DNA from: an uncultured bacterium
GTDB lineage: Bacteria > SAR324 > NAC60-12
Length of the DNA: 62,993 nucleotides
Direction of reading: 5' to 3'
NCBI GenBank assembly: GCA_964010765.1
Contig: CAXGMD010000008.1
Span: 1-62,993, forward strand
Shown: in pieces, positions 18,001 through 24,000 of the stretch
Layout: each line of letters opens with the position of its first letter
Numbering within the stretch: the stretch's first letter is position 1
Position numbers: made by a program

Positions 18001-21000
18001 CCCGGAGAGGAGCATGGATGCCTTCTAAGAGCAAAAGCACTAATCTGGTTGTTGGTTTAGATATCGGCACTACCAAGATTTGCGCAATTGCTGTCGATGC
18101 CAATAGTAAAGAACAATTACATGTTGTCGGTGTAGGAACTGCCAAATCAGAAGGTTTGCGCAAGGGCGTCGTCGTTAACATTGAAAAGACTGTCAATTCA
18201 ATCAAGAAAGCCATTGAAGAATGCGAATTGATGTGTGGTCAGCAGATCAATTCTGTATATGCTGGCATTGCTGGGCATCATATCAAGGGGCAAAATAGCC
18301 GGGGAATGGTTACGGTACACAATCGTACTGTCTCTGAAGAAGATATTCGAAGAGTGATTGATGCTGCGCAAGTCTTGATTCCAAATGATCGTGAGGTGCT
18401 CCATATTTTGCCGCAAGAGTTCATTGTTGACGAACAAGATGGGGTACAAAATCCCCTTGAAATGGCAGCAGCCCTCCTGGAAGTAAAAGTCCATATTGTC
18501 ACGGGATCGGTTACTTCAGCTCAAAATATCGTAAAGTGCTGTAATCAAGCTGGCTTGGAAGTTGATGATATTGTGTTAGAGCCATTGGCTTCCAGTCAGG
18601 CTGTGCTGAGCCCTGATGAGCAAGAAGTTGGGGTCGTCTTGGTAGACATAGGGGGTGGCACAACTGATATCACAATTTATTCAGAAGGCAGCATCGTCCA
18701 TACAGCCGTGCTAGCATTAGGAGGAAACCACCTCACCCACGATATTGCAATAGGCTTAAGTACACCCCTAGCGGAAGCAGAAGAGATCAAACATGAGCAT
18801 GGAGTTGCAATGGTTGATCTTGTAGGGAGTGAAGAAACAATTCATGTCCCTAGTGTTGGAGGACGAAACAACCGTAGCGTTCAAAAGCAGGTCTTGTCTG
18901 AAATCATTGAAGCCCGTTTCCGTGAGATCTTCGAATTCATCGCCCAAGAAATTGAGAAATCAGAATATCGCAGTGTGATGGCATCTGGGGTCGTGATTAC
19001 AGGTGGAACCTGCATCATGCCCGGTGCAGATGGCCTGGCTTCACAGGTCTTAAATCTTCCAGTAAGGGTTGGCTTCCCCGAGAATGTTGCAGGTCTACAG
19101 GAGTTAATCTACTCTCCAAAATATGCTACCAGTGTTGGCTTGGTCCGCTATGGAATCAATAGTAATCAAGGCAAACTGAACTTCAGTGGTGACGACACCA
19201 ATATGTTCCACAAAGTCGCCCGAAGAATGAAGGAATGGTTGCATGAATTTTTCTAAACACACATTACCTCACCTATCTAGGGTGAATGCAAAGATCAGAA
19301 GGAGCATACGGTGCTTGATTTAGGATTTGCTAACATCCAACCGGTGCAAAGTGACACTCCCAACATCAAGGTCATTGGGATTGGTGGTGGGGGTGGCAAT
19401 GCCATCAATCGAATGGTTGATGCAGGGATAAGCGGTGTCGAATTCATTGCTGCAAATACAGACCTGCAGGATCTCAACAAGTCTAAAGCCACCTACAAAC
19501 TTCAGCTTGGGCGCTCTAGTACAAGAGGCCTTGGTGCAGGTGCGAAACCAGAAGTAGGTCGTGCAGCTGCAATGGAAAGTGAAGCTCAAATCCGGGAGAG
19601 CATTGATGGGGCTGACATGGTCTTCATCACTGCTGGGATGGGGGGTGGAACTGGAACTGGGGGAGCCCCAGTCATCTCAAGGATAGCCCGGGAATCACGC
19701 GCGCTGACAGTTGGTGTAGTTACTCTTCCATTCAATTTTGAAGCGAGCAAACGTCGTCGTTTAGCAGAAGAAGGCATTGAAGAACTCCAAAAGCACGTTG
19801 ATACGCTGATTATAATTCCCAACAACAATCTGTTGGGAATTATTGACCAACGAACTTCCTTGGTGGAAGCGTTCAGTTTTGCTGATGATGTCCTTCGGCA
19901 AGGAATTCAGGGAATTTCAGATCTGATCACGTTAGACGGCATCGTCAATTTGGACTTTGCCGATGTCCGTACAGTCATGGAAAACAAGGGCAAAGCAGTG
20001 ATGGGTACAGGCCGAGCCTCTGGTGACAAGCGTGCTAGAAGAGCCGCAGAAAGAGCCATCCATAGCCCACTTCTCAGTGATTGTAATATCAGAGGGGCTC
20101 GAGGCATTCTGATGAATGTTGTCGGCAGCGAGTCTATGACACTTCATGAGGTTCATGAGGCTTCATCGTTCATTGAAGAACAAGGTCATGAAGATGCCGT
20201 CATCATTTGGGGTGCTTCAATTAATCCAGGTCTGGGTGATGAGATTCTGATTACGGTAATTGCAACAGGATTTGATAATCAACCATCTGTTTCAACGAAG
20301 AGTCCCGCTCAAGAAATTACCGAAGAGGTTGCAGAACTGCCAATTGCTGAAGAGCAAATACCGGATGTAAAAGAGGTAGAAGTTGAGCCGGAGAGGATGG
20401 TCAGATTTGAGCCGCCAGAGCCTACAGTCGCTGCAGTGATTGAAAAAGAGGAAGAAGTAGAGGTAGACGAAGTAAATGAAGAAAACACTCCAGGGATTGT
20501 TTTCGCCCTAGAACCAGAAGAGATTGAAGAAGAGGAATCATCATTTGCGCCATTGGAAGAGCCTAGAATCACTCTAGTAGCTGAAACCGAACAGGAGGAG
20601 CCTCACCCTGAAATGGATGAAATTCAACCCGAACCAATGTCTACTCAAAGTCCAGATGCGGCAGAGGAAGAAATCCCAGTGATTGCAGATGATGAATCGG
20701 AAGAACCTGCCTTTTATTCTCTAGGAGGAAGTGAGGTTGGCGATGAAGAGGTTGAACCTGTAATGTATGTTGCTGCACCGACAAATCATTTTCTAGAGGA
20801 AAGGGTTCCGCTAGAAGAACCAACCGAAGCGGTGGGCCAGGTTGAAGTTATACCAACAATCCAAAAATCAAACACTCCACCTGATAGAACGGAAGACTCT
20901 GTTATCGTTGAAACGGTGGAACCAGTAATTGCAGTAGCAAGTGCTTCAGGAGCAAGGATAAGGAGACCAGAAGGGGTAGAAATTGAGACAGCCCCAAGGG

Positions 21001-24000
21001 AAATTTTTAACTCGTCTGCGGCTAAGAAGTTGACGGATGCTCATCAGCGGCGATCTCAGGAACTCAGGGAGATGCCCAAAACTACTGAAAACATTACAAA
21101 TAAAGTTGATGTGACGGAGAAGACTACTATCTCGGCTGCTAATCCAACACTAACTGCGCAACCGACTATTCGGGGGTTTCAAAACCGCAGGGACTTTCAC
21201 AAAAATTTAGACATTCCGACTTTCATTCGTAAAAAACTCTCACCGCCCAGTAACTGATCCAAAGAAATTGACGTTCAAAGAAATCTTTTGCAGTTTTCTT
21301 TGAACAAGGTGATGCTCCTTCCCTCGATGCATCCCTGAAAGTCAATTTTCCTCAGCGTTTCAATCCTGCAATGAGACATTTATATTTACCAAGTGTATTG
21401 AGTCTTGGGCTACTTGGTAGCTTGTTAGCTTGGATTGTGGCGCAATTTGTTTCAATTCTCGCTGAGAGTCTTCTTATTTTGCCAGAAACGACACTTCCAT
21501 TATTACATCACATTTTGGAAGGAGCGTTATTTGGAGCAGGCTTGGGGATGGCACTCCAAATCCGTGAGATATACTTTCAAGGAAGTGAAATTGAATCCTT
21601 GGTCAAACAAGGAGTCAATGGTTTGTTTGATGGTTTGTTACTAGGCTTAGGTGTGACTCTACTCTCTGTGACATTTTCTGAAAGATTTCCACAGTACCAA
21701 TTTGGAGGACTGCTCTATGCGGTTTTATTGGGAGGTGGCATCGGAATTCAAACTTCGAGAGGATGTAATGCTTGGAAGGTCCGCCTACAACTTGGGCTCT
21801 TAGCGGCTGTCGGTGGCGGAGGAGCTCTCTATATTTTATCAACATTGCAGTCGGTTTTTCTGATTCAAGGATTTGCTAGTTGGATTCCGCTGTTGTCAAT
21901 AGGTTTTGGTATTTCCCTGCTATTGGGACTGCCAGAAGCACTGTTCAATCGTTCCCGATTACATCTACTAACCGGGGAGCGTGAAGGACATGTTTACTGG
22001 CTCCATCCGTTTTATAGTTCACTAGGGTATAGCCTTCAAAACAATCTGATCCTACATCCCTTTCGAGAAGTACGTGGAGAACAAGCTTGTATCGAGCGAG
22101 ATCGGGGTCAAATTTTTTTAAAGAATTATGGTGATTCCCAGGAAGTACTGTTGAATTACAGGCCTGTTGTGCAGCAAGAACTCCAGTCAGGAGACCTTAT
22201 CAAGATCGGAACGGCGCTGCTGCAGTTCACCAAATAGCAATGCCTGATTCAATTCGTAACTGGCAACGACTTCTCATAGGAGTGTTGCTAGTGATGGGGC
22301 TGGTGCCAACGCATGCTAATGCGGATATGCAATCCCCAAGTGTACAATTTGTTCTGCACGAACCCACCTCGTCTTCTGTTGATCCGAACAAAATCTCGCC
22401 CCCGCTGGAACCAATCGACCCCTTACAATTTGGAATCCTGATCGGTTTAATGTTGACCTTAGCCGGTTGCCTTTTCTGGTTTTGGCGATCGCGCAGCCAA
22501 CCTGTACGCAAAACCGAAGTGGAACTTGGTTTTGAAATCATTACTCCTGGAGAGAATAGTCGATTTCTACCCTTGGAGCTAAAGAACTACACCTTGGATT
22601 ATCTGAACGATATTGAAACAAAAAATAAGCTCAGATTGTCAGCGAATTTAGAGAAGGTTGCACTGACTCCAAAGCAGAATTCATTTTACTTGGAAGACCG
22701 GAATAGTAAGAACGCTTTGTTGGTGAATCGTCGCCGCATGAACAAAGTTTTGTTGCAAAACGAGGACGTGCTGGATATCGGTGAGTTAACTCTGCTTTTC
22801 AGAAATCGATTACCTGCCTTTGTGCTTCCCTCTGCTGAAGAAGGGAACCCGTTGCTCTATCCACGGCGATCGTTAACTCCGAAAGGCCCCTTACCCTCTT
22901 CAACGGCTTCTCTGCGCTTTCTCGGTAACCGTCAGGATTTTCCATTAGTACGCAACATTATGATACTAGGTAGATCTGAGACATGCGACATGGTACTTGA
23001 GGATTCAAGTGTTCACCTCAGACACGCGCGCATCTTTCGGTCGGGGACAGTTTACAAGCTCCAAAACCTAAGTACAGAAGGGACTTATCTGAATTCAAGA
23101 CGTGTTGAGCAAAAGGAGCTTCATGATGGAGATGAAATCGCTGTGGGACGTTATGTGTTCATTTTCCAAAGTGGCAAGAAACGATGAATAAGCAGTCGCG
23201 GTTGCTTTTTGTGTGCATGGGCAATATCTGTCGCTCCCCGACAGCTGAGGGAATCATGCTCCACCTGATCCGAAAAGATGGGCTAGAAGAGTTGATTGAA
23301 TGTGATTCTGCCGGGACGCACGGATATCATGTTGGAGAGCCAGCTGATTCAAGAATGCTGAAGCATGCTCAGATACGAGGATATGATTTACCAAGCCGTT
23401 CCCGTAAACTTCATCCAGTGAGTGACTTTCCTTACTATGACTGGATTCTGGTTATGGATGATCGTAACTACCAAGATGTAATAGGTTTGGACTCTTCTCG
23501 AGAATATGCATCTAAAATCCGAAGGATGACTGATTTCTGCCAATTGATGAAGGTAAATGAAGTCCCAGACCCTTACTATGGTGGAGATGCAGGCTTTGAA
23601 CTAGTGATTGATATTTTGGAAGATGCTTGTGCAGGATTGATGGAGAGGTTAAAAGCTGAATGAATGCAGGTCTCCGTGAAAGTCTACAAGCGGTTCTGGA
23701 ACAACCTATTCTAGATTGGTTGCCGGTTTCAGGTGGTTGTATTAGTGAAGCATGGCAAGTCAGAACAGCGCAGGAAACTGTATTCGTTAAGTTGTCAACG
23801 GGCTTATTGCCAGGAATGCTTGCAGCAGAGGCAGAGGGTCTCAATGAGTTAGCAAAATCAGGTGCGATCCGTGTTCCTGAAGTCATCAGGTTGACAGAAA
23901 ATTTTCTCATTCTGGAATTTATACCAACCGCCATCAATCCCCCTTCAGATTTTTGGTCCAAGTTGGGTCGGCAGTTGGCTAATTTACATGCTTATTCCGA

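Follow-up and report, generated by a model that had tools for sequence, protein, structure and literature searches.

Operons that combine a Ser/Thr kinase with vWA and FHA genes are known, for example DRA0331-0334 of Deinococcus (bioRxiv 10.64898/2026.01.23.701218), and other vWA systems are covered in PMC7159879. In the FtsZl1-vWA clusters, a tubulin-superfamily gene occurs together with genes for vWA proteins, membrane-bound or secreted, and often for kinases, and a role at the membrane has been predicted (PMC2875224, Makarova and Koonin 2010). The actinobacterial FhaB/FipA (Rv0019c) is a membrane FHA protein proposed to bind FtsZ (PMC3989709); this precedent is weak because PMC2797604, the primary paper on FtsZ and FipA, is listed as retracted. 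MxiG/YscD of secretion systems are inner-membrane proteins in which a cytoplasmic FHA fold without the phosphothreonine residues is part of a structural scaffold, and a canonical phosphothreonine-reading FHA domain is taken here to combine the motifs GR, SxxH and NG (PMC3162421).

Very little is known of the cell biology of SAR324, a phylum widespread in the sea. The genes of its division cluster are dispersed, yet two uncharacterised genes for putative membrane proteins, g1 and g2, are fixed behind ftsA-ftsZ phylum-wide; they are analysed here in the genome G000, in a window of 62,993 nucleotides. The SAR324 locus shares with the FtsZl1-vWA clusters the linkage of a tubulin-superfamily gene to membrane or secreted vWA-type proteins. 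However, its partner is the canonical, ftsA-linked FtsZ, which lies above the TIGR00065 cut-off, the vWA domains of the FtsZl1 clusters mostly carry a MIDAS motif, and the term FHA does not occur in the article text of PMC2875224. As with FhaB/FipA, g2 is a predicted membrane-anchored FHA protein with a proposed action at the divisome, but it scores 56.4 bits on the FhaB/FipA model NF049868 (cut-off 125), and FipA is kinase-dependent and encoded in the pknAB cluster. With MxiG/YscD, g2 shares the apparently phospho-blind cytoplasmic FHA fold, and it passes PF16697 (67.6 bits, cut-off 33.2); unlike YscD, it has no periplasmic ring domains, differs in topology and partner gene, and is not accompanied by secretion genes in the neighbourhood examined.

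A Spirochaetota kinase operon resembles the SAR324 locus in its two homologous proteins, their order, their architectures (six helices plus FHA; signal peptide, vWA, membrane helix and FHA) and its dead FHA pockets. In contrast to that operon, the SAR324 copy has no adjacent kinase or phosphatase, lies behind ftsA-ftsZ, is missing the MIDAS motif or the whole vWA domain, and has a second FHA domain and an invariant arginine patch. No description of the 6TM-FHA/vWA-TM-FHA operon was found in the literature searched, and none of the g1-g2 pair in that on SAR324, FHA-FtsZ or the dcw cluster, where the supplements of PMC2875224 may list such genes.

Organisation and persistence of the locus

As shown in Table 1, all four genes lie on the plus strand in the order that an earlier note on this DNA had described. 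The ATG of ftsA is immediately preceded by GAGGAG. FtsZ consists of 648 aa; it has an acidic linker of ~305 residues (net charge -51) and ends in the C-terminal peptide typical of FtsZ.

Table 1. Genes and protein parts of the ftsA-ftsZ-g1-g2 locus (g1 and g2, first and second gene behind ftsZ).
Feature	Position	Strand	Evidence
ftsA, canonical	18018..19256	+	TIGR01174, 453.7 bits (cut-off 175.85)
ftsZ, canonical	19311..21257	+	TIGR00065, 421.1 bits (cut-off 295.2)
g1, whole gene	21371-22237	+	
g1, N-terminal glycine-rich six-helix domain, putatively membrane (residues 1-192)	21371..21946	+	AlphaFold model
g1, C-terminal FHA-fold domain, phosphothreonine pocket lost	21947..22237	+	PF00498, 25.1 bits
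g2, whole gene	22240-23187	+	
g2, predicted signal peptide, short periplasmic remnant and one membrane helix (61-85)	22240..22494	+	sequence, model
g2, FHA1	22495..22812	+	PF00498, 30.2 bits
g2, FHA2	22900..23187	+	PF00498, 61.6 bits

The AlphaFold model of g1 (pLDDT 93.2, pTM 0.87) places helices at residues 2-34, 42-70, 74-105, 109-128, 135-163 and 171-192. This N-terminal domain is matched by no Pfam or NCBIfam model, and its hydrophobicity suggests that it lies in the membrane; in a structure search with the g1 model, the result list was taken up by FHA domain matches. In g2, the signal peptide was read by eye from the sequence, with an AxA motif at residues 26-28, and the model contains helices at 3-18 and 61-85. 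PF00498 is above its cut-off in all three domains of g1 and g2, and G000 has no other FHA matches. The g1 domain superimposes on GarA (6i2q_B) with Z 17.5 and rmsd 1.8 (97 aligned), and FHA2 of g2 matches GarA in Foldseek at E 6e-9.

The stop-start distance between g1 and g2 is -16 to +2 in 34 of 40 loci, with starts picked near the g1 stop, and both genes are probably co-transcribed with ftsA-ftsZ. RNA-library contigs span ftsZ-g1-g2 (X1, 20961-23895; X2, 20874-22376; X3, 21165-22365). In three of the four runs, however, coverage extends to every bin, even that of the convergent junction near 24.5 kb; DNA carry-over is therefore possible, and these contigs do not establish co-transcription. 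Promoter and terminator scans were no better than chance (17 vs 15.6; 9 vs 10.5), and the latter listed no terminator in the ftsZ-g1 gap.

The near-universal presence of g2, reported earlier for 34 of 36 genomes, extends to the larger set, with g2 in 82 of 88 genomes of the phylum (34 of the 35 of high quality) and g1 profile matches in 83 of 88. In 73 of the 82 genomes, g2 and an FtsZ GTPase match lie 1.3-3.25 kb apart on the same contig and strand. The 3' end of ftsZ lies just upstream of the pair in G056 and G034, and in G071 and G083 the contig is split and the 5' half of g1 adjoins ftsZ. The final tally is 77 genomes linked and 2 broken, with G037, G013 and G001 in neither class. The breaks in G059 and G010 are real: there the pair is separated from ftsA-ftsZ, and its motifs are intact. 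Thus, the linkage to ftsZ within about 5 kb holds, and its former count of 22 of 22 without exception does not. Linkage is present across all five families that have g1-g2. The ftsZ-linked g1 proteins form a separate tree branch (SH-aLRT 97-99). Within it, the sub-branches correspond to the families, which indicates vertical descent. Genes for an LMW-PTP phosphatase and a fructosamine kinase downstream were rejected as members of the system, as they are confined to one genus (a taxon also labelled g1).

Kinase-operon relatives and the phosphothreonine pocket

Outside the ftsZ context, 39 related loci were found, mostly in Spirochaetota, by a genome scan that covered the Spirochaetota-type branch, with the neighbourhoods of ~470-aa TM-FHA-FHA proteins lying outside it. 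A Ser/Thr kinase precedes the pair in 38 of the 39, giving the order kinase, 6TM-FHA, vWA-TM-FHA, and the gene order is that of SAR324 in 37-38. Profile matches beyond SAR324 reach 1e-41, and the long form of g2 can be aligned over its full length to the vWA-TM-FHA protein of the kinase operons (hhalign probability 96.5, E 8.8e-10, 402 columns). Such long forms, which make up 15 of 40 orthologues, retain a ~300-aa degenerate vWA domain in place of the short periplasmic remnant; the domain is absent from g2 of G000. The MIDAS motif (DxSxS) is present in 36 of 36 kinase-operon copies as opposed to 0 of 15 SAR324 long forms.

Single-chain g1-g2 fusions occur in G002 and as P0162/P0308, two of them inside SAR324, and six vWA fusion proteins lie outside the phylum (P0077, P0080, P0082, P0090, P0093 and P0097). 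Families f6 and f7 have a kinase-linked second copy of the module, which many f7 genomes keep; it groups with Spirochaetota (SH-aLRT 99), and its origin by recent duplication from the ftsZ-linked copy was rejected. Judged by homology, the pair is an old vWA/FHA/kinase module in re-use and no invention of SAR324. The comparison also defines a widespread six-helix-FHA/vWA-FHA kinase operon outside Pfam and NCBIfam models.

The full pocket motif set is missing from all three FHA domains of G000. The Arg+Ser+Asn set is found in 0 of 40 g1 domains and 0 of 40 FHA1 domains of g2; in the latter, GR and SxxH are lost and Asn is kept in 31 of 40. FHA2 of G000 keeps GR and His, has lost Ser and Asn, and has an N-x-RR turn (alignment to EmbR and GarA). 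Across SAR324, FHA2 has the set in one (G081) of 32 parsed sequences, with 8 of 40 not parsed, and in 120 further g2 homologues the FHA2 pocket is intact in 6 of 106 parsed. A canonical FHA set was intact in 31 of 31; as it was chosen by motif, it serves only to verify how the columns were mapped, and its use as a control would be circular. The pocket is thus degenerate in the great majority, and the earlier statement that Asn is absent in all goes slightly too far, because a few SAR324 have a complete FHA2 pocket and Asn is kept in most FHA1 domains. These motif losses support the reading that the g1-g2 FHA domains are mostly phospho-blind.

G000 has no Pkinase. At E<=1e-8, a Pkinase match is also missing from 22 of 55 genomes at least 88% complete and from 16 of 35 high-quality genomes, close to the 17 of 35 first reported. 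The pair also occurs in kinase-less genomes, as had been claimed, with g2 in 21 of the 22. Gene clustering places no Hanks-type kinase beside the pair in 40 SAR324 neighbourhoods. The loss of the pocket is not a consequence of kinase loss, since the homologous domains of the g1 and FHA1 types in kinase operons are dead as well (intact in 0 of 38 and 0 of 36) and the FHA2 pocket survives in a few SAR324.

Possible roles of the pair

For the reading of g1-g2 as a phospho-independent membrane scaffold co-opted into division, we see about an even chance. A more specific version, in which an exapted kinase-signalling module forms a seven-helix complex whose phospho-blind FHA domains tether or position the Z ring through an arginine face, is tentative and somewhat less probable. 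One copy of a Ser/Thr-kinase signalling operon would have been placed behind ftsA-ftsZ in the SAR324 ancestor; the kinase, the vWA metal site and often the entire vWA domain would then have been lost, and strong selection would have acted on the arginine-rich face of the FHA domains. With the membrane topology presumed here, g1 and g2 would each supply half of a single complex in the inner membrane (6+1 helices) that presents three FHA-fold domains to the cytoplasm, and the fusions and gene coupling suggest that they bind each other. Co-expressed with FtsA and FtsZ, the scaffold may help to tether, organise or regulate the Z ring via its basic face, with the FtsZ linker or another divisome protein as a possible acidic partner. 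ZipA and SepF were not found in any of five genomes tested, and MinC was found in only one of them; the known additional tethers and positioning factors were therefore not found in the genomes tested, apart from this MinC. A complex acting at the Z ring would be a new type of division accessory and a clean conversion of a signalling module into a structural one.

The basic face is strongly conserved. The NRRR patch of FHA1 (N163-R166), located away from the phosphothreonine pocket, is present in 40 of 40 orthologues, and RRR in 111 of 112 further homologues; the N-[FY]-R turn of the g1 domain is invariant too (40 of 40 have R at N+2), and R-rich turns are invariant on all three domains. The equivalent turn in kinase-operon FHA domains has acidic or mixed residues. 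The dN/dS of g2 is 0.36 for residues 1-60, 0.09 for 61-88 and 0.023 for 89-315, and its cytoplasmic part is under purifying selection. The patch is a defined surface that, with the natural fusions, makes the division idea directly testable.

Some observations speak against the division reading. The charge of the FtsZ linker varies from +5 to -59 across SAR324, while the basic patch is constant. In 26 genomes, the rates of g1 and g2 covary with those of division genes at rho 0.11-0.64, no more strongly than with the control Ffh (0.31-0.64), and even the FtsA-FtsZ value drops to 0.19 without G040. This genome accounts for 37% of the tree length of FtsA and 30% of that of FtsZ, for 6.8% and 10.6% in g1 and g2, and for 5-8% in housekeeping genes; its NRRR patch is unchanged, which makes a tight interface that depends on the sequence of FtsA or of the FtsZ tail less likely. 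When g2 residues 92-313 were modelled in complex with FtsA, the FtsZ core or the FtsZ tail, without controls, the score was 0.00, which counts on neither side.

A less likely explanation sees in the pair an adaptor of the envelope or of signalling, essential or nearly so, that is unrelated to division and stays behind ftsZ only because the strong constitutive operon suits it. No ftsA or ftsZ occurs at the kinase-type loci (0/39) or was matched at the 8 fusion loci examined, and argB moved together with the pair in G010. Genes of unrelated function also persist in this operon for long (argB in 15 of 40 loci, argJ in 9 of 40). In addition, no FHA domain at all occurs in two single-contig genomes that encode FtsA and FtsZ, G064 and G065 (88-93% complete); the pair is therefore dispensable for FtsZ division in part of the phylum (family f3). 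However, ftsA is retained beside g2 in 38 of 40 loci, compared with at most 17 of 40 for the next-best neighbours. Even the usual ftsQ-ftsA link is gone in SAR324, where ftsW stands alone and ftsQ lies with murB elsewhere (in G000, murB is cut by the contig end), and in G066 (86% complete) the pair, FtsZ and FtsA are missing together. The divisome part proposed in the earlier note thus stands as a core, ftsZ-linked, mostly phospho-blind membrane pair; its role in division stays a candidate one because of the two breaks, the two genomes without FHA domains and the nonspecific rate covariation.

Binding of the patch to DNA or to anionic lipid, for example in nucleoid coupling or in site marking as a Min/Noc-type substitute, is improbable, though compatible with a role in division. 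The invariant R-rich turns, the net charge of the cytoplasmic part of g2 (+2 to +19), the patch fixed in G040 and the rarity of MinC would fit such a polyanion partner; FHA folds normally bind proteins, which argues against it. A decaying phospho-regulated link between Hanks-type kinases and the divisome, with FHA2 still reading phosphothreonine in kinase-rich lineages, is very doubtful: the intact sets in G081 and six further homologues and the Pkinase matches in 16 of 16 f7 genomes tested, many with the kinase-linked second copy, would suit it, but the pocket is dead in the large majority, its Arg is lost in kinase-rich G043 and G049 yet kept in kinase-free G000, and the pair persists in the 21 genomes without a Pkinase match.

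Two supposed gaps in the SAR324 division and elongation machinery were ruled out, as a divergent FtsQ is present in 18 of 55 genomes and MreB in 4 of 4 genomes of family f2.

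The gene pair downstream of ftsA-ftsZ

As shown in the table below, ftsA and ftsZ of the SAR324 genome G000 (GCA_964010765.1) are followed by g1 (g00581) and g2 (g00582), in the order described by the earlier note. The SAR324 label follows that note and the source labels that g2 homologues carry. The predicted model of g1 shows six long helices and then a C-terminal FHA fold (pLDDT 93.2, pTM 0.87), and g2 consists of an N-terminus judged by eye to be signal-peptide-like, a short linker, a hydrophobic helix at residues 61-85 and two FHA folds (FHA1 and FHA2). These three FHA domains are the only ones in G000, where no Pkinase match was found.

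Positions of the genes discussed (in the window unless a contig or locus is named)
Feature	Position	Strand	Remark
Putative lipoprotein, 110 aa	17489-17821		directly 5' of ftsA
ftsA	18018-19256	+	
ftsZ, canonical, with ~305-residue acidic linker	19311-21257	+	
g1, 288 aa	21371-22237	+	starts 113 bases after ftsZ
g2, 315 aa	22240-23187	+	two bases after g1
Low-molecular-weight phosphatase and fructosamine-kinase genes	23184-24514		overlap g2 stop
Second, tail-less FtsZ	G000:C4:21675-22607; L074:9685-10656	-	
MreB genes	59294-60289; G000:C36:17454-18446		

Within the phylum, g2 was matched in 82/88 genomes and the g1 profile in 83/88, which upholds the view of the pair as a core feature. In 73 of the 82 genomes, g2 has an ftsZ match no more than 3.25 kb upstream, sharing its contig and strand; among the other nine, four are linked across contig breaks, two are truly broken (G059, G010) and three are undecided. 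The linkage thus prevails, although the universality implied by the 22 of 22 genomes reported earlier does not stand. In 40 neighbourhoods picked among the 82 for long contigs and spread of genera, ftsA lies beside g2 in 38, and no other neighbour is found in more than 17. The pair is absent from G064 and G065 of family f3, single-contig genomes (88-93% complete) with no FHA domain whatsoever, and in G066 neither the pair nor FtsZ and FtsA were found. Of the 55 genomes with a completeness of 88% or more, 22 gave no Pkinase match; g2 is present in 21 of them, in agreement with the earlier claim that the pair also occurs without a Hanks-type kinase.

Several variations were observed around these genes. 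The putative lipoprotein gene, which has no Pfam family and whose Atlas look-alikes are unnamed lipoproteins, occurs in 15/40 loci (family f1), and a SPOR-domain gene takes the slot before ftsA in 8/40 (family f7). The phosphatase and fructosamine-kinase genes occupy their place only in genus g1 (a taxon label, distinct from gene g1). The g2 gene is apparently split into two frames in G035 (L049) and G005 (C1:106372-107193). In family f3 (loci L144, L145, L076, L077), ftsA, which is followed by a TPR gene, lies 0.6-0.7 Mb from ftsZ.

Kinase-linked relatives and FHA pockets

With a threshold of E<=1e-30, a profile search against 1.84 billion representatives found 425 proteins. Among the 150 matches listed, six (P0077, P0080, P0082, P0090, P0093, P0097) join g1 and g2 in a single chain of six-helix domain, FHA, vWA, helix and FHA; the fused form sits among PP2C, vWA, zinc-ribbon-FHA and kinase genes. 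Fusions also occur within SAR324 (G002, P0162/P0308). A periplasmic domain of ~300 residues is retained in 15/40 g2 orthologues, all of family f1, and aligns end to end with the protein of vWA-helix-FHA architecture found in other bacteria (probability 96.5, E 8.8e-10, 402 columns); the vWA metal motif is present in 0/15 of these long forms versus 36/36 relatives.

When genomes were scanned with a single branch from outside SAR324 as query, 39 loci came up, 31 of them under titles of Spirochaetota groups. In 38, the same pair in the same order lies directly 3' of a Hanks-type kinase (the kinase operon), often with a metallophosphoesterase gene; neither ftsA nor ftsZ was found at the 39 loci. 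In many f6/f7 genomes the pair occurs a second time, within this operon (L135-L143, e.g. G078:C5, G085:C43, G084:C1), which there includes a 176-aa gene without a Pfam hit. In quick trees (SH-aLRT 97-100), that copy groups with Spirochaetota, and ftsZ-linked g1 stands apart on its own branch, subdivided along the SAR324 families. The pair is real and phylum-wide: a kinase-signalling membrane module in a variant form that appears not to have been described, relocated to the 3' side of ftsA-ftsZ. A literature search, with subscription papers mostly outside it, gave no description of the pair or its ftsZ link.

The phosphothreonine pocket was scored by the GR, SxxH and NG motifs, as given in PMC3162421. 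Arg, Ser and Asn occur together in 0/40 g1 FHAs, 0/40 g2-FHA1 and 1/32 parsed g2-FHA2, and in 6/106 FHA2 parsed from 120 further g2 homologues. The pockets are therefore mostly dead, as had been proposed, but the few intact FHA2 show that the Asn is not missing throughout. FHA1 retains the Asn in 31/40, with the remaining motifs lost. Because the kinase-operon FHAs are equally dead (0/38 and 0/36 intact), the loss is an old family trait and not a consequence of kinase loss.

Following the second Asn, SAR324 has fixed a basic turn instead: NRRR in 40/40 FHA1, N-[FY]-R in 40/40 g1 and N-x-RR in 31/32 FHA2; the kinase-operon g1 homologue is acidic at this position. Selection on g2 within genus g1 (five pairs) gives a dN/dS of 0.023 for the cytoplasmic part and 0.36 for the N-terminal 60 residues.

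Possible role in division

The architecture, ancestry and fusions of the pair, its pocket loss, the selection on it and its linkage are established by the data above. Beyond these, we infer that the two proteins probably assemble into a single complex of the inner membrane, whose three FHA folds in the cytoplasm would act as a phosphorylation-independent scaffold, as the FHA fold of MxiG does in secretion systems (PMC3162421). We hold at about even confidence that they tether or regulate the Z ring by way of another protein, because the pair stays with ftsA-ftsZ while other division links have dissolved (ftsW is alone in G000, and ftsQ lies beside murB in G039), and because no ZipA or SepF turned up in any of 5 genomes tested, nor MinC in 4 of 5. 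The pair is accordingly a good, unproven divisome candidate: the persistent linkage sustains the earlier proposal, but the two breaks and the division of family f3 without the pair weaken it.

These two exceptions also favour an envelope or signalling role outside division. Metabolic genes ride along too (argB in 15/40 loci, argJ in 9/40), and the charge of the FtsZ linker spans +5 to -59. In G040 (L058), FtsA and FtsZ are strongly diverged: FtsA is 39% and FtsZ 33% identical to the G000 protein, their relative rates are 2.7- and 2.2-fold, and they account for 37% and 30% of their tree lengths. The FtsZ tail motif is degenerate there and housekeeping genes are not accelerated, whereas g1 is not diverged (6.8% of tree length), g2 only mildly (10.6%) and NRRR is unaltered. 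Rate covariation with division genes in 26 genomes was no higher than with Ffh, in a test weak even for FtsA-FtsZ. In view of these contrary results, a non-division role keeps some weight, although we consider it rather unlikely, and residual phospho-reading by the pair, for which few FHA2 pockets are intact, is highly improbable. A division role exerted through DNA or anionic lipid is doubtful, if somewhat less so than phospho-reading.

The closest known systems are the vWA/FHA/kinase operons of a Deinococcus preprint (bioRxiv 10.64898/2026.01.23.701218), the FtsZl1-vWA clusters (PMC2875224), whereas in SAR324 the pair is linked to canonical FtsZ, and the actinobacterial FhaB/FipA (review PMC3989709), where g2 scores below the family cut-off; the primary FtsZ-FipA paper (PMC2797604) is listed as retracted.

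A second FtsZ of 324 aa, with no linker and no C-terminal peptide, is present in most family-f1 genomes, and in G007, G008 and G009 it lies convergent, just beyond the FHA pair. Both MreB genes of G000 score above the family cut-off.
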